NCBI GenBank assembly: GCA_001769655.1
Contig: MEPC01000042.1
Coordinates: 93,125-157,124 of the forward strand
DNA length: 64,000 bases
Reading direction: 5' to 3'
DNA from: Bacteroidetes bacterium RIFCSPLOWO2_12_FULL_37_12
GTDB taxonomy: Bacteria; Bacteroidota; Bacteroidia; 2-12-FULL-37-12
Shown: piece by piece, positions 32,229-47,025 of the stretch
Layout of the letters: every line of letters begins with the position of its first letter
Numbering within the stretch: the first letter of the stretch is position 1
Translations under genes and position numbers: made by a program
The notes under the pieces: generated by a model
Databases searched by the model: none
Told to the model about the DNA's origin: nothing
What the model saw: only the letters and a program-made list of their open reading frames with translations

Positions 32229-33731
32229 ATGCCCTCCCCCCGCGACCCCCAACTCGAAATTGCTCTCGGAAAAAGCGCCTTGCTCAAATCAAAAGTGCTG
32301 GCAATTTTTTTTGGAATTGTTTGGAGTGCTCAACTAACCATATTAATCGTTTTTACATTTATCTATAAAACGTGGTTCTCTCAGGTCACTTCTGAAATCT
32401 TAATACCCGTTGTATCTTTATTCGGATTAACTTTCTTCGCTGAATTATATTCTTTCTTTTATTTTAAAAAAGTTGTACGGGAAGGCAGAGCGTACGCTAT
32501 TAAAAAAGCATATCCGGTAGTTTTTCTGGAAGTCACTTTCCCTTCACTGATAATGTTTTTCCTGTTGATTCATTTTCCGCAAGGTATCCCTTTTACTAAA
32601 ATGGATTTAATGAACGGTCCACCGGTTTTTTTGTATTTATTTTTTATCATACTATCTGCGCTTTATTTGGACATGAAAATTTCCGTTTTTATTGGAATTA
32701 CCGCCGGAGTTGAATATGCATTATTATTGATTTTCTGGGGACAAGATGTAATTGCAGAAACTTTCGCCCCCTTGCTCTTTTTTAAATCTGTCATTTTTGT
32801 CGTTTGCAGTGTCATTTCCGGCATGGTTTCCATGAAAATAAGGGAAGCCGTTTTATCAGCCATGCGAACTAAAAATGAAATGATTCAAACATTAGATGAA
32901 AAAGTAAATGAAAAAACAAAAGAAATTCTCCTGAAAAAAGAAGAGATTGAAGAGAAAAACAAAAACATCACCGATAGCATTGAATATGCCTCGCGGATTC
33001 AACAGGCAATTCTTCCTGATTCAGGAAAAATAAAACAATTTGTCTCGCAGTCATTTATTCTATATGAACCCAAAGATGTGGTAAGCGGAGATTTTTACTG
33101 GTTTAAAGAATTGCCCGAAAAAGGAAAAGAATGTTTCATCATTGGAGTAGGTGATTGTACCGGACATGGAGTACCCGGTGCCTTGATGGCTATGATCGGA
33201 AACTCTTTATTGCACCAGATTGTAAACGAAAAAAAAGAAATCAGCCCCGCTAAAATTTTGAATCTGATGCACGAGGGAATAAGGAATATTTTGCGACAAT
33301 CGGAGGAAGACACAAGCACAAGAGATGGAATGGATATGGTTTTATGTACCGTAAATTTATCAGAGAAAAAAGTAATATATGCCGGCGCCAACCGTCCTTT
33401 GTTTTACTTCACACAAAATACCTTTCATGAAATTTCTCCGGATAAGTCACCAATAGGCGGATTTCAATGGGAAGAAAAAAGGAATTTTAATGAAACAATA
33501 ATCCCTTTGAATTCCGGTGACACAATTTATCTTGCATCAGATGGCTATCAGGACCAATTCGGTGGCACTCATAATAAAAAGTTTGTAAAAAGAAATTTTA
33601 TTGAATTGCTGGGAAATATTCAAAAACTATCTATGGAAGATCAGCAGAAAACATTATACAAAAATTACAAGGAATGGAAAGGTACGCGGGAGCAGACGGA
33701 TGATGTGTTGGTAGTTGGAATTAAAGCGTGA
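32229..33731 (+). CDS. Membrane-anchored PP2C/SpoIIE-family serine phosphatase (RsbU-like)
   Basis: About 6-7 N-terminal TM helices and a coiled coil, followed by PP2C motifs (SGDFYWF, GDCTGHGVPGALM, DGYQDQFGG). Confidence 0.7.
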   Translation: MPSPRDPQLEIALGKSALLKSKVLAIFFGIVWSAQLTILIVFTFIYKTWFSQVTSEILIPVVSLFGLTFFAELYSFFYFKKVVREGRAYAIKKAYPVVFLEVTFPSLIMFFLLIHFPQGIPFTKMDLMNGPPVFLYLFFIILSALYLDMKISVFIGITAGVEYALLLIFWGQDVIAETFAPLLFFKSVIFVVCSVISGMVSMKIREAVLSAMRTKNEMIQTLDEKVNEKTKEILLKKEEIEEKNKNITDSIEYASRIQQAILPDSGKIKQFVSQSFILYEPKDVVSGDFYWFKELPEKGKECFIIGVGDCTGHGVPGALMAMIGNSLLHQIVNEKKEISPAKILNLMHEGIRNILRQSEEDTSTRDGMDMVLCTVNLSEKKVIYAGANRPLFYFTQNTFHEISPDKSPIGGFQWEEKRNFNETIIPLNSGDTIYLASDGYQDQFGGTHNKKFVKRNFIELLGNIQKLSMEDQQKTLYKNYKEWKGTREQTDDVLVVGIKA

Positions 33732-33736
33732 TTTCA

Positions 33737-36736
33737 CTACTCCATGCTTCTGTAAATTACATCCATTATTTTTGTTCTTACATCCATTGTAATGAGTTTT
33801 TTATTTCCCACATCCGGATGCACCCGGTTTGATAGAAAAATGTAAACCAGCTCTTTATCGGGGTCAACCCAAACGCAGGTACCCGTGAATCCTGAATGTC
33901 CGAATGTATTGGTTGATGCAAGTTCAGAAGTGGGACCATTCCCTTTGGGTTCTTTTTTATCCCAGCCCAATGAACGCCTGCTTACCGGGGTCTTGTAAGA
34001 GTAAAATTCTTTTACTATTCCTTTATTAAAATATCTTCTTCCGCCATAATAACCGTCCTGCAAATTCATCTGCATTAAGACGGCTAAATCATGGATGTTA
34101 GAAAAAAGACCGGCATGACCGGCAATTCCTCCCTGCATCGCGGCACCAGGATCGTGAACAGTGCCACGAATCAATTCTCTGCGGAATACAGTATCCATCT
34201 CTGTTGGCGCCATTCTGTCAAGTGGAAATTTTTTCAACGGATTGTAACCAAGGGTGGATAATCCCAATGGATTATAAAAAGTTCTGGTTAGAAAATTTTC
34301 CATTGGTTCGTAGAGAATATTTTCAACGGCTTTCTTCATGATTTGAAAACCAATGTCACTATAAACATATTCTTTCTTTCCGGTAACGGGAGAATTGATT
34401 GTCCATTTCCAAACGGAATCAGGTAATGAAGGAATCCCTTTCAAAGAGGAAGAAACAGAAATGCCGGAATTTATAGTGTCACCGGAAGGAAAATAAAAAA
34501 CGGGAGATATTTTTCCGGTTTTTTTATCGAGTGTATTTTTCCAATATTCCAGGTAGGCGGGCAACCCGGACTGATGGGTGAGAATATCCACAATTTTCAA
34601 GGTATCTTTATTCGTCCTCTTTAATTCGGGAATATAATAGGAAACGGGTTTGTTCAGATCAATTTTATCTTCGCTTTTCAGATACATAATTGCCTGCAGT
34701 GTGCCTGCCACTTTTGATACAGATGCTATATCATATAACGTGTTTGGTGTCACCTTTTCGAGCGAATCATACGCAGTATATCCAAAACATTTTTCAAAGA
34801 CCACCAACCCTTTTCGTGCCACAAGAACCTGAGCGCCGGGTGTGGCTTTGTTTTTTATGGCATCGTTTGCAATACTATCAATTTTATTAAGACACACTGA
34901 GGACATTCCCACTTCTTCAGGATATCCAACCCGTAATCGTAAATTACTGTTTGTTTTAATTCCCGTTCCATACGAAAATTGCGGAGAGGCAGTAACCGGA
35001 AGCGTTCCCTTTACACCCATAGCGCCAAATAATATCTGAGGAGCTATCTGCCGGGTGTAGTCATTATCCTCATAAGAAAGTAAAAGCCAATGAAAATTTT
35101 CGAGTAGGGTCAAGGCGTAAGGAGTTCCAAACAATACTATGATGACGCGGGTTTTTTGATTCAATTCCTCAAGCATGCTCAATAAACGTTTATCCATTCC
35201 AAAATCCCTGCTTTGAATTTTACCAATCCTGTGTAATCCTACGACCACTACATCAAAATCATCAAGCATGTGCTTCAACGAATCATACGCTATATCAGCA
35301 TCATTTTTCTTCAGTGTAAAATGTGAAAATGGTGCATAATGAGTGAGGGTTTGCTGAAATAAATTTCCTTCCGGAGCGCCTGCAGAAAGAGAGGCGAAAC
35401 GAAAGGTCTCTGGAGATTGAACCGGAAGGAAATCTTTTTCATTTCTGACAAGGGTTTGTGCATCTTCATATAACTGGCTCGCAAATATTTTAGCAGTGGC
35501 ATTATTAAGATTATTAAAAAGATTAGTATCGGGAATGGTTTGTTTTCGTTTTAACCCACACCAATATTTGAAATACAATATTTTTCTGACACTATTGTCT
35601 ATATCCTCACGAAGTAGTGTTCCGTCAGCAACGGCATTACAAATTTCTTTTATGGCAAGAGGGATATTCTCCGGATAAAGCAATACATCGTTGCCTGCCT
35701 GTAATGCTTTTACTTCTAATTTTCCAGGTTCAAAATATTTACTGACTGCTTTCATGTTCAGGGCATCGGTAAAAATCAAACCCTGAAATCTCAATTTATC
35801 TTTTAACAATTCACAAACCACGTTTTCGGAGAGCGTAGTAGAGGAAAACGCAGTAGAATCCATGGTGGGAATATGAAGGTGTGCCACCATCATGCTCATA
35901 AGTCCGTGGTTTATTAATTTCCGAAAAGGAAATAATTCTAAGGAATCAAGACGTTTTACATCATGATTAAGCAGAGGAAGTTCAACATGGGAATCAGCGC
36001 CCGTGTCACCGTGTCCTGGAAAATGTTTTCCATTCGCAATAATGCCATTTTGCTGAAGACCTTCCATATAGGCATACGCTTTATCAAAGACCTCCTCGCG
36101 GGATTCGCCGAAGGAGCGGTCACCAATCACCGGGTTCAGCGGATTACTGTTTATATCAGCAACGGGAGCAAAATTTACATGAATGCCAAGCATTTTGCAC
36201 TGGGATGCAATTTCTTTTCCCATTTCAAAAATTTTACGATTATCATTGATGGCACCCAGTGTCATTTGTCTGGGAAAACTGAGTGTGCTGTCGAGGCGCA
36301 TCCCCAAACCCCATTCTCCATCAATGGAAATAAGCAAAGGAACATTGGAAATTGCCTGCCAACGATTTGTCAATTTTACCTGACGCACAGGTCCCCCCTG
36401 AAAAAAAATCAATCCCCCGATTTTATAATCCCTTATCAGCGAATCAATTTTGAGATTAAATTTTTCGTCTCGGTTAGAATACGCCGCAACCATAAATAAT
36501 TGCCCTATTTTTTCTTCCTCACTCAACGTATTAAAAACACTGTCCACCCAAGGGTGATTTAATTGGGGTTTGAAAAGATTTTTCAGAGTGGATGTATCAG
36601 CGGAATAAGGCATTTGTTCCCATGAAATAATATCCCTGCGTTTTGGTTGGTGAGTTATTTTTTTGGGTACCTTGCAATGAATGAGCAGAAACGTAAAAAA
36701 TAGCAATAAGAAATATTTTGTCTTCTTAAAATTCAT
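33737..36736 (-). CDS. GH3 (NagZ-like beta-N-acetylhexosaminidase) fused to a class C beta-lactamase/PBP-like serine hydrolase; lipoprotein
   Basis: GH3 motif KHFPGHGDTGADSHV in the N-terminal half and the beta-lactamase SxxK motif (ASVSKVAGTL) in the C-terminal half. The probable start is the Met at 36736 (MNFKKTKYFLLLF..IHC); the track's 36802 start is a TTG inside a hairpin. Confidence 0.7.
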   Translation of the reverse strand: MNFKKTKYFLLLFFTFLLIHCKVPKKITHQPKRRDIISWEQMPYSADTSTLKNLFKPQLNHPWVDSVFNTLSEEEKIGQLFMVAAYSNRDEKFNLKIDSLIRDYKIGGLIFFQGGPVRQVKLTNRWQAISNVPLLISIDGEWGLGMRLDSTLSFPRQMTLGAINDNRKIFEMGKEIASQCKMLGIHVNFAPVADINSNPLNPVIGDRSFGESREEVFDKAYAYMEGLQQNGIIANGKHFPGHGDTGADSHVELPLLNHDVKRLDSLELFPFRKLINHGLMSMMVAHLHIPTMDSTAFSSTTLSENVVCELLKDKLRFQGLIFTDALNMKAVSKYFEPGKLEVKALQAGNDVLLYPENIPLAIKEICNAVADGTLLREDIDNSVRKILYFKYWCGLKRKQTIPDTNLFNNLNNATAKIFASQLYEDAQTLVRNEKDFLPVQSPETFRFASLSAGAPEGNLFQQTLTHYAPFSHFTLKKNDADIAYDSLKHMLDDFDVVVVGLHRIGKIQSRDFGMDKRLLSMLEELNQKTRVIIVLFGTPYALTLLENFHWLLLSYEDNDYTRQIAPQILFGAMGVKGTLPVTASPQFSYGTGIKTNSNLRLRVGYPEEVGMSSVCLNKIDSIANDAIKNKATPGAQVLVARKGLVVFEKCFGYTAYDSLEKVTPNTLYDIASVSKVAGTLQAIMYLKSEDKIDLNKPVSYYIPELKRTNKDTLKIVDILTHQSGLPAYLEYWKNTLDKKTGKISPVFYFPSGDTINSGISVSSSLKGIPSLPDSVWKWTINSPVTGKKEYVYSDIGFQIMKKAVENILYEPMENFLTRTFYNPLGLSTLGYNPLKKFPLDRMAPTEMDTVFRRELIRGTVHDPGAAMQGGIAGHAGLFSNIHDLAVLMQMNLQDGYYGGRRYFNKGIVKEFYSYKTPVSRRSLGWDKKEPKGNGPTSELASTNTFGHSGFTGTCVWVDPDKELVYIFLSNRVHPDVGNKKLITMDVRTKIMDVIYRSME

Positions 36737-36780
36737 CGTTGTAAAAGTACTGAATTTTTTCTCCGTTTTCATTAAAAAAA

Positions 36781-36822
36781 ACCTCCCCCAGCCCCTCTCC
36801 AAAAAAATGGAGAGGGGTGAAC
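36781..36822. repeat. GC hairpin element CCCCAGCCCCTCTCC-A7T-GGAGAGGGG, copy 1
   Basis: A 9-bp perfect stem with an A-rich loop. A near-identical copy lies at 37141-37180. Confidence 0.6.
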
Positions 36823-39525: not shown

Positions 39526-40017
39526 ATGCGTCCGATTGCAACTTCTAAAAAAAATAAAAAAAGTGTATATGTTGAAACATCCGTAATCAGTTATCTTGTG
39601 GATGAAAGAATAAAAATCAGATCCTTTATTGAAATAACTACACGTTGGTGGAATACCCAGCGCAAATACTATATGACATTTATTTCTCCTGAGGTTATTG
39701 CCGAACTCCAAAAAGGAAATTACCCGAATAAAACAAAGGCAATAGAACATGCTTTGACTATTCAATTAGTTGAACGAAAAAAGGAAATTATTGATATTGC
39801 CTCTATTTATATGAAAAATTTCCTTATGCCAAAAGAATTAATTGGCGATGCAATGCACCTTGCTTATGCTTCCTATTTTAAAATTGATTTTTTATTAACT
39901 TGGAACTGCACTCACTTAGCAAACGCCAATAAAAAAGAACATATCCGTATATTAAATTCAAGATTAAATTTATTTGTCCCGGAAATCATTACCCCTATGG
40001 AATTATTTATTGATTAA
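39526..40017 (+). CDS. PIN-domain protein (VapC-like)
   Basis: The N-terminal VYVETSVISYLVDE and C-terminal DAMHLAYASYFKIDFLLTWNCTHL match the PIN acidic-residue pattern. Confidence 0.45.
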   Translation: MRPIATSKKNKKSVYVETSVISYLVDERIKIRSFIEITTRWWNTQRKYYMTFISPEVIAELQKGNYPNKTKAIEHALTIQLVERKKEIIDIASIYMKNFLMPKELIGDAMHLAYASYFKIDFLLTWNCTHLANANKKEHIRILNSRLNLFVPEIITPMELFID

Positions 40018-40335: not shown

Positions 40336-41373
40336 TTGGATTATTTTAACAACCAGATGATGCACCATCCATTCAATCCCGAAAAATTTTTTAAAAATCT
40401 CCCTTCCACCCATTCCGGCGATTTCGAAAAAAATGCCCTCGCCCTGTTTGAATTTCAATTTGAACATAACAAAGTTTACAGGGAATATTCACAACGAATT
40501 GGAAGGCCACCCGAACAGGTAGATTCATTAATGAAAATCCCTTTTCTGCCAGTTCGTTTTTTTAAAACGCACCCGGTTTTCTGTGGTGACGTACCCTTTA
40601 CAAACTATTTTCTCAGTTCCGGAACAACCGGCACTCAACCTTCAAAGCATTACATCAAAGAGATTTCATCTTATTTAACGAACTGCGTGCGCTGTTACAA
40701 CTATTCCTGGGGCGCATTAGATAATTATAGTATTCTCGCTTTAATTCCATTATTAAAAAATAGAGAAACATCATCCTTAGTCCACATGGTAGAACATTTT
40801 ATTCAACTATCCAACGATAGTGTTTCCGGTTTTTATTATGAGAATGAAGAATGTCTTGCTGACTTATTATCACATCCCACAGGAAAATTCCCTGCTAATA
40901 AAAGAATAATTCTGCTCGGTCTTAGCTACGCTTTGTATGATTTTTTTTATAAGCACCCCATACATTTTCCGGAATTGATTCTTATGGAAACCGGGGGTAT
41001 GAAAGGGAGAAAAAAAGAAATGACACGGATGGAGTTGCATGAATTTTTAACAAATCAAACGGGTGTGCAAAAAGTATATTCTGAATATGGCATGACTGAA
41101 CTTATGTCACAGTCCTATATAGTGCCCCCAAGCTTTTCTTTCTCTCCCCCACCCTGGATGAAAATTCTTATTCGCGATATCCATGACCCCTTCCATTTTC
41201 TATTGGAAGGCAAAAGAGGCGCAGTAAATGTAATTGACCTTGCAAACATACATACCTGTGCTTTTCTCGAATTGGACGATTTAGGGATTATAGACCCGGA
41301 AGGTAACTTTCAGATTCTGGGCAGGATGGACGAATCTGACTGGCGAGGTTGTAATTTGATGATTTTTTCTTAA
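40336..41373 (+). CDS. LuxE-like acyl-protein synthetase/adenylating enzyme
   Basis: Contains FLSSGTTGTQPSKHY and METGGMKGRKKEMTRMELHEF, resembling the LuxE acyl-protein synthetase family. Confidence 0.5.
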   Translation: MDYFNNQMMHHPFNPEKFFKNLPSTHSGDFEKNALALFEFQFEHNKVYREYSQRIGRPPEQVDSLMKIPFLPVRFFKTHPVFCGDVPFTNYFLSSGTTGTQPSKHYIKEISSYLTNCVRCYNYSWGALDNYSILALIPLLKNRETSSLVHMVEHFIQLSNDSVSGFYYENEECLADLLSHPTGKFPANKRIILLGLSYALYDFFYKHPIHFPELILMETGGMKGRKKEMTRMELHEFLTNQTGVQKVYSEYGMTELMSQSYIVPPSFSFSPPPWMKILIRDIHDPFHFLLEGKRGAVNVIDLANIHTCAFLELDDLGIIDPEGNFQILGRMDESDWRGCNLMIFS

Positions 41374-41392: not shown

Positions 41393-42856
41393 ATGCCATC
41401 AATCCTACCCGAATTTGATTGTGATATTTTTATCAGTTATCAGGCAGATGATTCCGTTTCTGCCGACTGGGTAAAAGTATTTGCTCAGCAATTGGAAATG
41501 GAATTAAAAACATTGATTCCTAATTCCGTTCACATTGAATATTGGAAAAGTCAGGCAAACATTTCCCAATTACCTAAATCACTTTTATTTATTCCAGTCA
41601 TTATTAAATCCTATTGCCAGGAAAATTCACCCTATTGGAATGATGAATTTATGCGCTTTCATGACAGCGCCTGCCATGATAACCTGGGACTAGTCGTTAA
41701 AGTAAATGCGTATTGTTCTTACAATAGAATATTACCGGCAAAAATCAGCTTTCCTGATAAATCACAAATGCTTCTCCTCGAAAAAAGCACAGGGCATCCT
41801 TTCAAGACCTTTGACTTTGTTTATGAAGGACATGACCGCCTTGACCATCCGCTGAAGCCAGAAGATAATTTCAACGACCTTGGTTTACATCAAAAAATGG
41901 CATTCAGAAGTCAATTAAATAAACTGGCATTAGTTATAAGCGACATATTAAAGGCAGTAAAAAACCCAAGTTTAGCTGAAAAAGAAAATTATGGAGTGAT
42001 TTACATTCCTTGGACCTCTGCCGACCTTAAACTAAAACGGGAAGAACTCATACTCATATTGCAAAATTCAGGGATGCTGGTAATTCCTCAATATGACTGC
42101 CCCATTGACGAAGAGAAATTTAAAAATATAGTGAATGAATGTGTTTCCCAGACAGATGCTTCCATACATTTGGTAAGTGACGAGTATGGTAGAAGCTTTG
42201 AAAACGATGAAAAAAAATCTTTTGCCATGTATCAGTTGGAACAGGCAAAATCCGTTTTAGCAAATCATATTAAACCATTTCGTATTTTTATAAACTATTT
42301 TAAAACAGGGGGAGTGGTTTCTCCTTTACAGGAGTCATTTATTCAGCAAATCAGAAACAGCTTGTCTGACGGGATTATGTTTATGAATGCCACTCATCTT
42401 ATGTATCTTGCAGAAGATTTACGGCAAAATATTCTTGATAGTAAACTGACCGCCAGGAAAGAGATTGAATCGGACCTTCTTTTAGTGTATAACTACTTGG
42501 ATATTGACCGTGCCGAAGAAATCAAAAAAGAAATTACACAAGATATGTCTTGCAGGTTTTCAAGCTATATGATGAATGGAAACAAAGACGGAATCAATGA
42601 CATTCAGAAAAATGTACAGGGAAGCCGCCTTACGATTGTTTTCAGCAAAGAAACGTTCAACTGGGCTAAGCCATTTGTTCAGTATCTTTGGAAACTTACC
42701 GGAGGAGTTCACTCGAAAAACCAAATTGCATGGATTGGTGAAATTGATGGGGAAAAGGAACCTGAAACCCTTCGTCTTCCCGGTATTATACATAAATTTG
42801 CAAAGAAAGAGAATATTGTTTCAGAAATAAAAAAGATTTTTAACCCATTTTCATAA
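41393..42856 (+). CDS. TIR-like domain protein, 487 aa. The N-terminal TIR is followed by two further flavodoxin/TIR-like segments.
   Basis: Carries the TIR beta-A motif FDCDIFISYQADD, beta-D plus SxW..E (LLFIPVIIKSYCQENSPYWNDEF) with a conserved Glu, and later GVIYIPWTSADL and LTIVFSKETFNWAKPF. It starts 19 nt after the LuxE-like gene and ends 2 nt before the STAND gene. Confidence 0.5.
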   Translation: MPSILPEFDCDIFISYQADDSVSADWVKVFAQQLEMELKTLIPNSVHIEYWKSQANISQLPKSLLFIPVIIKSYCQENSPYWNDEFMRFHDSACHDNLGLVVKVNAYCSYNRILPAKISFPDKSQMLLLEKSTGHPFKTFDFVYEGHDRLDHPLKPEDNFNDLGLHQKMAFRSQLNKLALVISDILKAVKNPSLAEKENYGVIYIPWTSADLKLKREELILILQNSGMLVIPQYDCPIDEEKFKNIVNECVSQTDASIHLVSDEYGRSFENDEKKSFAMYQLEQAKSVLANHIKPFRIFINYFKTGGVVSPLQESFIQQIRNSLSDGIMFMNATHLMYLAEDLRQNILDSKLTARKEIESDLLLVYNYLDIDRAEEIKKEITQDMSCRFSSYMMNGNKDGINDIQKNVQGSRLTIVFSKETFNWAKPFVQYLWKLTGGVHSKNQIAWIGEIDGEKEPETLRLPGIIHKFAKKENIVSEIKKIFNPFS

Positions 42857-42858
42857 CA

Positions 42859-45800
42859 GTGACACCCTCCGTTTCCACTCATTGCCCCTACATTGGTTTA
42901 CGTCCATACCGTGAAGAAGAATCCCTTTATTTTAAAGGACGCGATTCCCACATCCTGGAAATCCTGGAAATGATTAAGCAGGATAATTTCATCATGATGA
43001 CAGGGGCATCGGGCGACGGGAAAACATCGTTGGTAAAAGCAGGAGTCATTCCTGCATTGAAAGCCGGATTAATCAATACGCAATTCAATAATTGGATCGT
43101 TGCAAGTTTCCGTCCCGAAAGAAATCCGCTGGGTAACTTTGCCAAAAGTTTATCCAACGCTCTCGGATATCAGACCCCTGAGAGCGTGGAATCATTAATG
43201 GGGTATGGTTTTTCCTCCCTTTGCAACCTCTACAAAAATTCGCCTTTCTATGTAGATGAAAAAAGTGATTCATTTCTTTCACTAACTCCCGAAGAAAAAA
43301 AGAAAAAACAACATCAAGCCGCCAATCTGTTGATTTTTACCGACCAGTTTGAAGAGTTTTTTACAAACGTGGAAAATTATACCGAAGGAATTCCATCCGT
43401 AAATTCGCAAACCGTTATAAATCTATTGCTTGAAACCAAAAAACTTGCAAAGGACGAAAAACTTCCCATTTATATTCTGTGTACCATGCGATCCGACTAT
43501 ATGGGATCTTGTGCCGCTTTTCCCGGATTGCCCGAATTAATTCATCGTAATCATTACTTCGTTCCCCGTCTTAAAAGAAACGAATTGATGAAAGCCATTA
43601 AGGAGCCCTGCCTGCTTACCGGTTATTCCATTACCGATCGCTTAGTGGAGCGATTGATTTTTGATTTGAAAGAATGTATAGAAATTCTTCCCGTTTTGCA
43701 ACATGTCTTGTATCAAATCTGGCATATTGCTTCCTTAGAAAACGTACCCATGGACCTGATTCATTATGCCATGGCAGGTGGAATGCCCAAAGTGGAGCTC
43801 CCTCAGGAAGATCAAGTCACTTTTAAAAATTGGTTCGCAAAACTTCCGGAATACAAACGTCTGCTGTTTGAGAATCCATCCATTGGAAATGTGCTGGATG
43901 CCCATGCTTCAGAATTATTTGAAATCGCACATAAAAGAACTTCTACTCAAGCGCCGGTGGGCGAACAACTTTCCAAACATATTATCCGGGTTGCTTTTAC
44001 TTGTCTTACCCGCATGGATAATGGAAAAGCTGTGAGAAACCGTGTGACGATCAAAAATATTGCTGAAATGGTGGATTTGCCGGGGGTTGACCACAGAACC
44101 ATTGGCAGAGTTCTGAATAACTTCAGAGAACAAGGCAACACATTTATTCAGCCATTTATTTATGATTTGGATCAAACCATCGTTGAAGTGTCACTCAAGG
44201 AGGAATTAGTAAAACCGGATATCATACTCGACATCACGCATGAAGCATTAATCAGAAATTGGAGTTTGCTGCGAGATTGGGTGGACAAGGAACAGGAAAG
44301 CGTAAAAATATATATAGACCTTGAAAACCAGCTTGACCGTTGGGTAAAGAACAGTAAAAAGAAAGAATACTTGCTTGGGGAAGGAACATTGGAATATTTT
44401 TATCAATGGTTTCAAAACCAAAACCCTAATGCCGGTTGGATAAAAAGATACATGCTTGAAAGCAGAATAAAACTTTCAAAAGAAAAAGAAAAGTCCGGAG
44501 AAAACACCGAACTCACATCCACTAACGGAAATCATTCAACTCCCGATCTCACTAATACGCTTAACAACAAGGAAGAGCAGGATAGAATGAAATCAAAACT
44601 TGCCCGCTTGCGGTTACAAAACATCCGTGAGTTCCTGAGCCATAGCCGTAAAAATATTTCTTTCAAAAAAAATTTTACCAGGAGCACCATTCTTCTCATT
44701 TCATTTTTGCTGGTACTGTCCATCATTGGATTTATCAATGCCAATAAAGAGAGAACCAATGCCATTGAATCAAATAAAGTTTCAAGATCGAATGAACTTT
44801 CTTACAGGTCTTTTCTTACTGTAAATAATGACCCTACCATGGCGTTCCGTCTGGCAGAAGCCGCATATAACGTATATCCCGGGACGTATGCAAAGCAAGC
44901 TGTCATGGAATCGTTTATGAATCCTCCTTTTTACAAATTAATTTCAGGCCATTCGCATTATGTCACTAGTGGAATGTTTTCTACTGACGGACGATATTTA
45001 GTAACCGCATCCAATGATAAAAGCGTACGCCTTTGGGATATTTTTGGCAAACCTCAGGCGGTTATGATGCATGATGATATTGTAAAATCAGTACAATTTT
45101 CTCCCGATAATAAAAAAGTGCTTTCTTGCTCAGCCGACCGTACCATACGTCTATGGGATTTAAAAGGAAATGAAGTTCAAAAACTGACTGCTCATAACGG
45201 AGTGATTAATTCTGCGCAGTTTTCACCCGCAGGCAATTTTATTATTTCTACTTCTGATGACAGTACTGCCATCATCTGGAATATTATTAAACCCTTACGG
45301 ATACTCAAAGGTCATAAAGGTCCCGTTTTATCTGCATCTTTTTCACCAAATGCCCGGCAAATTGTTACCACTTCTTCTGATAACAATCTTATGCTATGGA
45401 CTTTTGACGGAGTTCTTCTTAAAACCTTAGAAGGACATACTGCGCCGGTATTGGGTGCCACTTTTTCAAACGATGGGAAATATATTTTAAGTTATTCCGT
45501 TGATTTTACAGCTAAATTATGGGGCATGAAAGGAAATCTGGTGGCTGATTTGAAAGGACATACCGCACCCTTAACCGGTGCCATTTTTTCGCCGGATGGA
45601 AGCAAAATTTTTACTTATTCAGATGATTTTTCTGGGATTCTCTGGGATTTTTCGGACAAACCCGGCAATGTATATGTACAATTACTTAATTTTTTTCAGG
45701 GGCATAACGGGAAAATTGTTTCTGCTTCTTTTGCAACCGATGGTGAAACTATTGCCACTGCTTCAGAAGACAATACCTGCCGGATTTGGAGCCAGAACGG

Positions 45801-47025
45801 AAACACGCTACACATATTAAAAGCAAATGACTTGTTCATGCTGGCTTTATTTACTCCCAATAGCCAGCGGGTTCTAACTACACATAACAGCGGCGCAATT
45901 AGAATATGGGATTTAACTCAAAAAGAAACCCGTGTGCTACGTAACCATGTAGAATATGTGTGGGATGTCACTGTATCCCAAAGCGGTAAATACATCGTTA
46001 CCTCTTCGTGGGATAATAATGCATGTTTATGGAATAACGCTGGTGAACTTTTAAAAACACTGGTAGGACACACCGATAAAGTATATTACTCTCTGATAAC
46101 TCCCGATGAACAATTTATCATCACTACTTCTTATGATAAAACCATACGGTTATGGAAAATGGATGGGCAATGCCTTCAGACATTATCCGGTCATACCGGA
46201 AATATTTATCAACCCCATATAACAGATGATGGAAAATTTCTCATCACTCCCAGTGCGGATAAAACAGCCATTGTCTGGCAGTTTATCAAAGAAGGTGACA
46301 CTAAATTATTGAAAAAATATGCCACACTCAGAGGGCACATTGGTAGAATTCGGGTTGCCCGTTTTTCTAATGACGGCCGTTTCATACTTACTGCCAGCGG
46401 CGATAACACTGCCCGCTTATGGGACCGTGACGGAAATCTGGTGCGAAAACTAACTGGTCACACTGCTGAGGTTTATACCTGTTGTTTTTCAAAGGATGGC
46501 GCCTATATTATTACGGGTTCATCGGATGGCACTGCACGAATCTATGATGGAATGGGAAATTTTCTGCAAATTCTTGCCGGTCATTCTGAAGGAATAAGCG
46601 ATGTGGTATTTATGCAGAATCAAAAATACATTGTGACTGTTTCTTCAGACCGCACAGGAATTATCTGGAACTTGCTCGGTAAAGATATTGCTCATTTGAC
46701 AGGTCATACAGATTTAATCAATACGGTGGAAGTGTCACCCGATGGGAAATACTTATTGACTTCCTCTGATGATCTTACAGCCCGTGTCTGGGATTTGGAT
46801 GGAAATGAAATCAATGTATTGAAAGGGCACAACGGACAGGTGCAGGAAGCCCATTTTTTCCCCGATGGAAAATCTGTCATCACTTGCTCAAAGGATGGCA
46901 CAGCACGCATCTGGCCTGTTTTTATAGAGGATGTATTCCGGAAAATCAATGATGAAAAATTCAGAGGTGATGTATGGAGTCCTAATCGTGCAGAAAGGAA
47001 GATATTTGGAATGGGGGTGAATTGA
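42859..47025 (+). CDS. STAND-class P-loop NTPase (NACHT/nSTAND-like) with one predicted internal TM helix and at least 14 C-terminal WD40 repeats
   Basis: N-terminal CPYIGLRPYREEESLYFKGRD, Walker A GASGDGKTS and Walker B IFTDQFEEFF. A TM segment STILLISFLLVLSIIGFI lies near aa 620. Repeats of the form GH..V....FSPDG..I.T.S.D.T.R.WD follow. Confidence 0.8.
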   Translation: MTPSVSTHCPYIGLRPYREEESLYFKGRDSHILEILEMIKQDNFIMMTGASGDGKTSLVKAGVIPALKAGLINTQFNNWIVASFRPERNPLGNFAKSLSNALGYQTPESVESLMGYGFSSLCNLYKNSPFYVDEKSDSFLSLTPEEKKKKQHQAANLLIFTDQFEEFFTNVENYTEGIPSVNSQTVINLLLETKKLAKDEKLPIYILCTMRSDYMGSCAAFPGLPELIHRNHYFVPRLKRNELMKAIKEPCLLTGYSITDRLVERLIFDLKECIEILPVLQHVLYQIWHIASLENVPMDLIHYAMAGGMPKVELPQEDQVTFKNWFAKLPEYKRLLFENPSIGNVLDAHASELFEIAHKRTSTQAPVGEQLSKHIIRVAFTCLTRMDNGKAVRNRVTIKNIAEMVDLPGVDHRTIGRVLNNFREQGNTFIQPFIYDLDQTIVEVSLKEELVKPDIILDITHEALIRNWSLLRDWVDKEQESVKIYIDLENQLDRWVKNSKKKEYLLGEGTLEYFYQWFQNQNPNAGWIKRYMLESRIKLSKEKEKSGENTELTSTNGNHSTPDLTNTLNNKEEQDRMKSKLARLRLQNIREFLSHSRKNISFKKNFTRSTILLISFLLVLSIIGFINANKERTNAIESNKVSRSNELSYRSFLTVNNDPTMAFRLAEAAYNVYPGTYAKQAVMESFMNPPFYKLISGHSHYVTSGMFSTDGRYLVTASNDKSVRLWDIFGKPQAVMMHDDIVKSVQFSPDNKKVLSCSADRTIRLWDLKGNEVQKLTAHNGVINSAQFSPAGNFIISTSDDSTAIIWNIIKPLRILKGHKGPVLSASFSPNARQIVTTSSDNNLMLWTFDGVLLKTLEGHTAPVLGATFSNDGKYILSYSVDFTAKLWGMKGNLVADLKGHTAPLTGAIFSPDGSKIFTYSDDFSGILWDFSDKPGNVYVQLLNFFQGHNGKIVSASFATDGETIATASEDNTCRIWSQNGNTLHILKANDLFMLALFTPNSQRVLTTHNSGAIRIWDLTQKETRVLRNHVEYVWDVTVSQSGKYIVTSSWDNNACLWNNAGELLKTLVGHTDKVYYSLITPDEQFIITTSYDKTIRLWKMDGQCLQTLSGHTGNIYQPHITDDGKFLITPSADKTAIVWQFIKEGDTKLLKKYATLRGHIGRIRVARFSNDGRFILTASGDNTARLWDRDGNLVRKLTGHTAEVYTCCFSKDGAYIITGSSDGTARIYDGMGNFLQILAGHSEGISDVVFMQNQKYIVTVSSDRTGIIWNLLGKDIAHLTGHTDLINTVEVSPDGKYLLTSSDDLTARVWDLDGNEINVLKGHNGQVQEAHFFPDGKSVITCSKDGTARIWPVFIEDVFRKINDEKFRGDVWSPNRAERKIFGMGVN

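Follow-up and report, generated by a model that had tools for sequence, protein, structure and literature searches.

Among the closest known systems to the locus studied here are the NLR-like proteins PsAvs2, bacterial TEP1-like, and eukaryotic NWD1 and TEP1, in which a DUF4062 (NIR) domain stands N-terminal to a STAND NTPase and repeats, including WD40 repeats, follow at the C-terminus; for these proteins, activation of the head driven by oligomerisation is the accepted logic. A second group is formed by the systems built on nSTAND1, a STAND clade of predicted counter-invader or conflict systems named by Kaur, Burroughs, Iyer and Aravind (eLife 2021; PMC8195603), in which the NTPase has TIR, caspase and other effectors as associates that can act in trans via adaptor domains, the coupling being made by small helical EAD or Death-like adaptors. 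The nicotinamide adenine dinucleotide (NAD+)-degrading enzymes (NADases) of the defence systems Swarozyc, Vulcan, Vesta and Evangelion are DUF4062 proteins as well; these act without a STAND partner on cytoplasmic phage proteins and rely on a catalytic Glu (E97, E98, E103, E87). In our study, two adjacent genes, ORF1 and ORF2 (ORF, open reading frame), have been analysed in a window of 64,000 nucleotides from Bacteroidetes bacterium RIFCSPLOWO2_12_FULL_37_12 (contig MEPC01000042.1, positions 93,125 to 157,124), where a sequence-only reading had proposed a candidate NAD-depleting defence or cell-death module.

The pair shares its parts with these systems and differs from them in layout. As in PsAvs2 and the TEP1-like proteins, a DUF4062-like domain precedes a STAND NTPase and C-terminal WD40 repeats, and two fused relatives (P0219 and P0253) have the exact domain order of the NIR-STAND-repeat proteins. 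However, the NTPase is nSTAND1 and not Avs or NACHT, the head lies in a separate gene which adds an extra TIR-like domain, in the DUF4062-like domain Gln replaces the catalytic Glu and a second TIR-like domain, lacking the Glu, follows, and a transmembrane helix is predicted to put the repeats outside the cytoplasm. ORF2 belongs to the same NTPase clade as the nSTAND1 conflict systems, but here a tandem TIR-like module of 290 residues is found and no EAD, and the envelope and PP2C neighbourhood of the relatives sets the locus apart from both groups. The middle domain of ORF1 is of the same fold family as the Swarozyc-type proteins, whereas the family has Gln in place of their catalytic Glu. 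No description of the module family, of the transmembrane-plus-periplasmic layout or of the Bacteroidota operon was found in the open-access papers searched.

Our analysis shows that the ORF1/ORF2 pair is a real, conserved system, of which the predicted topology and the natural Glu-to-Gln NIR domain are of more interest than another TIR defence system would be. We tentatively read it, at a little under an even chance, as a split inner-membrane NLR-like receptor that would cluster a TIR enzyme upon an envelope cue.

Results

Conserved linkage of the two genes

Both genes were found to be real in the ORF listing of the window (Table 1). ORF1 stops with TAA at 42854-42856 and, after a gap of 2 nucleotides, ORF2 starts with the GTG at 42859. 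No start codon lies between the upstream in-frame stop and this GTG or among the eight codons behind it, and with the nSTAND1 profile already beginning at residue 10, no other start can be used.

Domains 2 and 3 of ORF1 (residues 196-487) form a module of about 290 residues. An exhaustive search of 1.84 billion representatives has yielded only 91 relatives of it, most of them stand-alone proteins of about 295 residues and about ten of them with the same N-terminal TIR-like domain. A word-indexed search with the module alignment gave 35 matches, chiefly from one Bacteroidales clade, and a scan of the GTDB genomes with ORF1 itself gave no relative. The closest ORF1 homologue (76% identity, locus L001) lies in the same gene pair, and the module gene stands directly upstream of an nSTAND1 gene in all loci collected from STAND homologues (L002, L003, L009-L011) or from module homologues (L004-L008).

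When 185,579 species genomes of the GTDB were scanned for the pattern, 298 module relatives were identified, and 80 loci were fetched; Bacteroidota lineages are named in all but two of the record titles, those two being labelled Ignavibacteriales and Comamonadaceae. Testable loci were those with at least 600 nucleotides downstream of the module gene (n = 71); an nSTAND1 gene is adjacent and downstream in 59 of these and follows after one intervening gene in 10 more (69/71), while the two loci lacking it have only 1.2-1.7 kb of downstream sequence. The gaps between the two genes are mostly -36 to +24 nucleotides and reach +129. The full-length STAND ORFs have about 1350 residues (13 loci; 1063 residues in the L010/L078 locus), the others being cut by contig ends, and ORF2 with 1388 residues is of this size. 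In P0219 (1605 residues) and P0253 (1444 residues) the module, nSTAND1, a transmembrane helix and WD40 repeats are joined in one chain. Linkage across the loci together with these two fusion proteins makes the module and nSTAND1 a functional unit. The conserved partner of the STAND protein is the module of domains 2 and 3 and not the TIR head, which is present in 22/89 loci (about a quarter). The heads vary between TIR-like, cyclase plus TIR-like (P0205 has an adenylate/guanylate cyclase domain before the TIR-like head of its module protein) and none, which matches effector swapping.

NTPase, membrane helix and WD40 repeats of ORF2

In the Pfam search, nSTAND1 (PF20703) was found at residues 10-310 of ORF2 with 220.1 bits against a cut-off of 27.1 (E 9.2e-65). 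The motif PYIGLRPY occurs at residue 10, the Walker A motif GASGDGKTS at 49 and FTDQFEEFF at 160, the Walker B stretch LLIFTDQFEE covering residues 156-165 approximately. The NACHT family was absent among the best 25 of the 57 Pfam families listed, and PADLOC gave only a match of the repeat region (HEAT-ARM_XIII). More than 500 Bacteroidota proteins match the N-terminal 680 residues of ORF2 at 40-50% identity. All of them have the NTPase module in common, and what comes after the hydrophobic helix is WD40 propellers, GldM domains or a TonB C-terminal domain. At L002 768-8756 and L010 3970-10715, two or three nSTAND1 paralogues stand next to one another, which indicates a local expansion of the family.

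The strongest hydrophobic segment of both proteins lies at residues 609-628 of ORF2 (Kyte-Doolittle mean 2.47), and it is flanked by a net charge of +5 over the 15 residues on its N-terminal side and of +2 on its C-terminal side. A helix of transmembrane grade is found at the corresponding place, residues 560-601, in 57/60 of the full-length relatives that were fetched with their loci. Beyond the helix, WD40 was matched by Pfam in 15 stretches (434 bits, E 9e-135). Because the NTPase needs cytoplasmic nucleotide and the protein has a single transmembrane helix, the C-terminal part should be periplasmic, and the GldM and TonB_C domains found after the helix in paralogues are periplasmic-type domains, in agreement with this placement. 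Hence, the WD40 propellers of ORF2 probably face the periplasm.

Three TIR-like domains in ORF1

The AlphaFold2 model of ORF1 (mean predicted local distance difference test score, pLDDT, 92; predicted template-modelling score, pTM, 0.79) consists of three alpha/beta domains at residues ~10-195, 202-354 and 360-486, and on the strength of the models all three are members of the TIR/NDT (deoxyribosyltransferase)-like fold group. Several other matches were set aside. Foldseek with the whole three-domain model placed KefC and succinyl-CoA synthetase on top, which are multi-domain artefacts; the NCBIfam and PADLOC searches of ORF1 gave nothing meaningful, a PADLOC match to bSEFIR (E 0.021, 25 residues) being taken as noise; and the Argonaute PIWI chains obtained from a PDB sequence search with the N-terminus alone are chance-level matches.

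Domain 1 is modelled as a flavodoxin-like five-stranded parallel beta/alpha fold resembling solved TIR domains. With the N-terminal parts of some 80 Bacteroidota proteins (P0002-P0082) it shares 32-36% identity, the best PDB matches of its family profile are the flax L6 and L7 TIR structures, and two of its relatives exceed the Pfam TIR_2 cut-off (P0211 with 35.3 bits and P0206 with 31.8 bits). The motif DIFISY is present at residues 11-16 and SPYWNDEF, containing Glu85, at 79-86. In the alignment, Glu85 falls opposite the Glu of the canonical S.WC..E motif of TIR_2 proteins, and it is invariant in 115/115 relatives (34/34 fused to the module and 81/81 others). The spacing from Ser79 to Glu85 is +6, the same as in flax L6, whose sequence at this place we take to be SKWCLME. 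Glu85 thus appears to be the conserved Glu of the NADase-type TIR helix alpha-C and is a candidate catalytic residue. The some 80 Bacteroidota proteins P0002-P0082 are headed by this domain with the invariant Glu, and most of them then carry 'TolB-like' or TPR regions. A transmembrane helix after the TIR-like domain was seen in the three whose trimmed sequence was inspected, and this order of TIR, transmembrane helix and outside repeats recalls, as an analogy, the topology of Toll-like receptors. Relatives of domain 1 are also fused to a caspase (P0022) and to an FGE-sulfatase domain (P0078).

Domain 2 resembles DUF4062, and its relatives P0214, P0206 and P0204 exceed the cut-off of that family (29.3, 27.5 and 26.1 bits). 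The module family profile aligns to the DUF4062 structure of KpSwz (10wc, E97A chain), with 'LSFTEKAF' opposite 'slaelQf', where the consensus is Gln. Domain 2 therefore lacks the catalytic Glu of DUF4062 (E97 in KpSwz, E108 in PsAvs2) and has Gln281 in ORF1; over 198 distinct relatives the column holds Q in 149, H in 18 and E in 5. DUF4062 has been described as a TIR-like NADase that cannot do without its Glu, E-to-Q substitution abolishing the activity (bioRxiv 10.64898/2026.05.01.722283, 10.64898/2026.09.04.749371). With Gln at the catalytic position and such mutants of DUF4062/NIR NADases being dead, domain 2 is probably not a NADase. The conservation of this Gln nevertheless implies that the pocket has kept some importance.

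Domain 3 is the most conserved part of ORF1, with D370, W424, F428, W433, G437 and G438 invariant in about 184 relatives, and an invariant Phe stands where the Glu of a TIR domain would sit. A separate AlphaFold2 model of this domain (pLDDT 88) has as best Foldseek matches the 'cryptic TIR' 5for (E 3e-4), DNPH1 and the TIR domains of MAL, MyD88, BtpA and PdTIR, with template-modelling scores of about 0.6.

Much of what the sequence-only reading had described is confirmed by these results. The two ORFs lie 2 nucleotides apart where it had placed them and contain the motifs it quoted; ORF2 is a STAND NTPase (nSTAND1 E 9e-65) with one transmembrane helix and 15 WD40 stretches, where at least 14 repeats had been counted; the two further flavodoxin-like segments of ORF1 appear as alpha/beta domains in the model; and homology and fold both mark the first domain as TIR-like, with the Glu at the expected position. 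The two genes also travel together, far more than chance would give, and are sometimes even fused. Its proposal that a TIR protein is the partner of the STAND protein stands as to the linkage and needs correction as to the partner, since domains 2 and 3 occur alone in about three quarters of the relatives. The term multi-TIR-like protein is likewise apt in that three TIR-like domains are present, though the middle one is DUF4062/NIR-like with Gln and probably no NADase.

Genomic neighbourhood

The module loci have a core-genome context and, in Bacteroidales, keep their synteny close to EF-P. Directly after the STAND gene, L004, L006, L007 and L009 carry a gene for a SpoIIE/PP2C phosphatase; in L011 it comes two genes later, and 19/89 loci have one within 6 kb. 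Genes for outer membrane protein (OMP) beta-barrels, GldM_1st/GldL_N-like proteins and FG-GAP+OmpA proteins are found inside or beside some of the module/STAND operons. Further observations concern single loci. At L011 4013-4946, genes for DUF6272 and SiaC, a partner-switch phosphoprotein, lie just upstream of a cluster of module, nSTAND1-WD40 and SpoIIE genes. At L030 1701-2972, L032 6882-8168, L055 6858-9290, L039 7082-7429 and L057 4692-5900, additional genes separate the module and STAND genes or come after them, their products including GldM_1st/GldL_N-like, FG-GAP+OmpA and ParE toxin proteins. In L057 a YpsA-SLOG+DUF4231 protein occupies the place expected for the STAND gene.

The genes of the 64-kb window are all housekeeping (PurD, CTP synthase, YidC, Rho, RecQ, class II ribonucleotide reductase, SerRS, asparagine synthase, PheS, GldN and similar), and the guanine-plus-cytosine (GC) content of the ORF1/ORF2 region (0.36-0.39) is like that of the remainder. 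Some neighbours were considered individually (Table 1). A SpoIIE/PP2C phosphatase (E 1e-20) is encoded 8 kb upstream of ORF1 and is a possible, though uncertain, member of the same pathway. The gene of a LuxE-like acyl-protein synthetase ends 19 nucleotides before ORF1; it has a counterpart upstream in L001, a close relative, and none in L002-L011, the loci over which upstream genes were compared, and it is probably outside the system. An ORF with a weak PIN-domain match (E 1.5e-3), without obvious antitoxin partner, was rejected as a partner of the pair on account of this weak Pfam match and because no linkage is seen elsewhere. A fusion of glycoside hydrolase family 3 with a beta-lactamase fold probably serves cell-wall recycling and is unrelated to ORF1 and ORF2.

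Table 1. Positions of ORF1, ORF2, their parts and nearby genes in the window.
Feature	Position	Strand	Description
ORF1	41393..42856	+	487 residues, ATG start; three tandem TIR-superfamily-like domains
Domain 1	41414..41977	+	TIR-like, putative enzymatic head; ORF1 residues ~8-195
Glu85 codon (WNDEF)	41645..41647	+	candidate catalytic Glu; alignment, conservation, helix 80-95 in model
Domain 2	41990..42457	+	DUF4062/NIR-like, Glu-to-Gln variant; ORF1 residues ~200-355
Gln281 codon (SFAMYQ)	42233..42235	+	at DUF4062 catalytic-Glu position; alignment to KpSwz E97A chain
Domain 3	42464..42853	+	TIR-like fold without Glu (NxxD ... WA.PF....WK..GG); ORF1 residues ~358-487
ORF2	42859..47025	+	1388 residues, GTG start; nSTAND1 NTPase, transmembrane helix, WD40 propellers
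nSTAND1 NTPase module	42886..44538	+	cytoplasmic (predicted); residues ~10-560; Walker A 49-57, Walker B ~160
Transmembrane helix	44683..44745	+	single, predicted N-in; ORF2 residues 609-629; hydropathy, flanking charge
WD40 repeats	44926..46938	+	~15, predicted periplasmic; Pfam WD40; number suffices for two propellers
SpoIIE/PP2C phosphatase	32229-33731	+	500 residues
Glycoside hydrolase family 3 + beta-lactamase-fold fusion	33737-36802	-	1021 residues
ORF with weak PIN-domain match	39526-40017	+	163 residues
LuxE-like acyl-protein synthetase	40336-41373	+	

Discussion

Under the reading which we favour, ORF1 and ORF2 would form one operon whose products make up an NLR-like (STAND) signalling module that is split in two and spans the membrane. 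ORF2 would be bitopic in the inner membrane, with the nSTAND1 NTPase in the cytoplasm and two WD40 propellers beyond the transmembrane helix in the periplasm, and ORF1 would be its cytoplasmic partner. The Glu-less domains 2 and 3 may serve as a non-catalytic docking and assembly module, taking the N-terminal effector or adaptor position of an NLR, the position that is seen in the fusions P0219 and P0253, while the N-terminal TIR-like domain with Glu85 would be the enzymatic head. An envelope cue, which may be phage attack, envelope damage or a foreign molecule, would bind to the propellers; the STAND NTPase would then swap its nucleotide and oligomerise, and the docked ORF1 molecules would be gathered on the STAND oligomer. 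TIR and NIR enzymes generally need assembly for activity, and the clustered TIR heads could then cleave NAD+, leading to its depletion or to a signalling nucleotide, and further to growth arrest or a downstream response. A phage-defence role of the pair and the cleavage of NAD+ by ORF1 are both putative.

Several of the findings weigh against this reading. The Pfam matches on which the two domain names depend are below their cut-offs in ORF1 itself, namely TIR_2 (STIR clan) at residues 12-91 with 19.6 bits against 28 (E 1.3e-3) and DUF4062 (PF13271) at residues 203-283 with 20.1 bits against 24.7 (E 7.7e-4), and the Trp-to-Glu spacing in domain 1 is one residue off that of the canonical TIRs. 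About 75% of the module genes are without a TIR head, so the core system must work without it. No integrase, transposase, mobile or defence gene is present in the 64-kb window, the locus being core chromosome, and PADLOC gave no match in the 14 ORFs flanking the pair. Finally, the genes linked to the relatives (PP2C phosphatase, SiaC, GldL/M-like, OmpA and OMP) fit a regulatory envelope signalling as well as they fit immunity.

The main rival is an envelope-signalling device without lethal outcome, in which ORF2 would sense the state of the periplasm or the outer membrane, ORF1 would be a purely structural adaptor using its three TIR-like domains as scaffolds for protein-protein or nucleotide binding, and the output would pass through partner-switching components, for example PP2C (SpoIIE) phosphatases, rather than through NAD+ destruction. 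The missing TIR head in most module proteins, the lack of the catalytic Glu in domains 2 and 3, the SpoIIE genes near the STAND gene and upstream in the window, the SiaC and DUF6272 genes of L011, the GldM/GldL-like, FG-GAP+OmpA and OMP beta-barrel genes in or beside the operon, and the core-genome context with synteny near EF-P all speak for such a device. However, the invariance of Glu85 is expected of an enzyme and not of a TIR adaptor, the heads are swapped like effectors, and conflict systems are where nSTAND1, TIR and DUF4062 are otherwise found; the SpoIIE link, moreover, is seen in only about one fifth of the loci, and in the window this gene does not adjoin ORF2. On balance we consider the signalling device rather unlikely. 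That ORF1 and ORF2 are mere neighbours without functional connection is scarcely credible: the exact architecture of ORF1 is rare and only a single close full-length homologue appeared in the first search, but the conservation of order and strand in 69/71 testable loci, the two independent fusion proteins and the intergenic gap of 2 nucleotides already contradict it.

The sequence-only reading had itself spoken of an island and of a parallel to Avs/bNACHT-type and Thoeris-like logic. Taken as a model, this would be a cytoplasmic anti-phage system in a defence island, in which an intracellular phage protein is recognised by the WD40 repeats and NAD+ is then depleted by the TIR protein. A conserved Glu in the TIR-like head, a STAND NTPase with a repeat sensor as partner, the conservation of the pair and the enrichment of DUF4062/NIR domains near defence genes in the literature would suit this view, which we nevertheless judge improbable. 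The single conserved transmembrane helix between NTPase and WD40 means that the two are not both cytoplasmic and puts the sensor, by prediction, outside; the Avs and bNACHT systems have effector, NTPase and sensor in one cytoplasmic chain, whereas here the chain is split by the helix and no Avs or bNACHT model was matched in PADLOC. A Thoeris system pairs the ThsB TIR with a ThsA carrying SIR2 or transmembrane/Macro and SLOG parts, and nothing resembling ThsA exists in the window, where no SIR2 or SLOG gene was found and PADLOC gave no Thoeris match for ORF1 or its neighbours. The label of an island is unjustified because the flanks are all housekeeping and hold no integrase, transposase or defence gene, and the GC content is that of the surroundings. 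The remark that the layout is not a canonical one, on the other hand, has proved right, as neither protein matched a PADLOC model apart from the generic repeat match.

Returning to the split membrane receptor, its nearest analogue in topology would be the Toll-like receptor with MyD88, where an extracytoplasmic repeat sensor, a single transmembrane helix and cytoplasmic TIR-family domains signal by assembly, and where non-catalytic TIR domains act as adaptors in the way proposed here for the ORF1 module. This is analogy only, homology being claimed for no more than the TIR fold; in contrast to those receptors, an NTPase switch stands here between the transmembrane helix and the TIR partner, and the sensor is of WD40 and not of leucine-rich repeats. 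By a more speculative and doubtful extension, the relatives might constitute an undescribed Bacteroidota class of inner-membrane NLR-like receptors, in which a WD40, GldM-like or TonB_C-like sensor reads the periplasm or outer membrane and the STAND protein signals to a tandem pseudo-NIR/TIR adaptor with an optional catalytic TIR head. Such a class would combine Toll-like-receptor topology with NLR mechanics, and its Glu-to-Gln NIR domain would be repurposed for assembly or ligand binding.

Conclusion

To our knowledge, those STAND/NLR immune receptors, bacterial or eukaryotic, that have been characterised sense their ligands in the cytoplasm. If the proposed topology is true, a STAND sensor working across a membrane would widen where such switches look for danger, and the pair would offer a tractable bacterial model for the coupling of an outside signal to the assembly of TIR domains. 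As far as we know, it was not until 2026 that NADase activity was demonstrated for DUF4062/NIR domains, and a natural lineage with Gln in place of Glu makes a non-catalytic use of this fold, as adaptor or for ligand sensing, directly testable. The links to PP2C and to GldM/TonB-like proteins suggest, further, a possible tie between immune-type switches and the envelope physiology of Bacteroidota.

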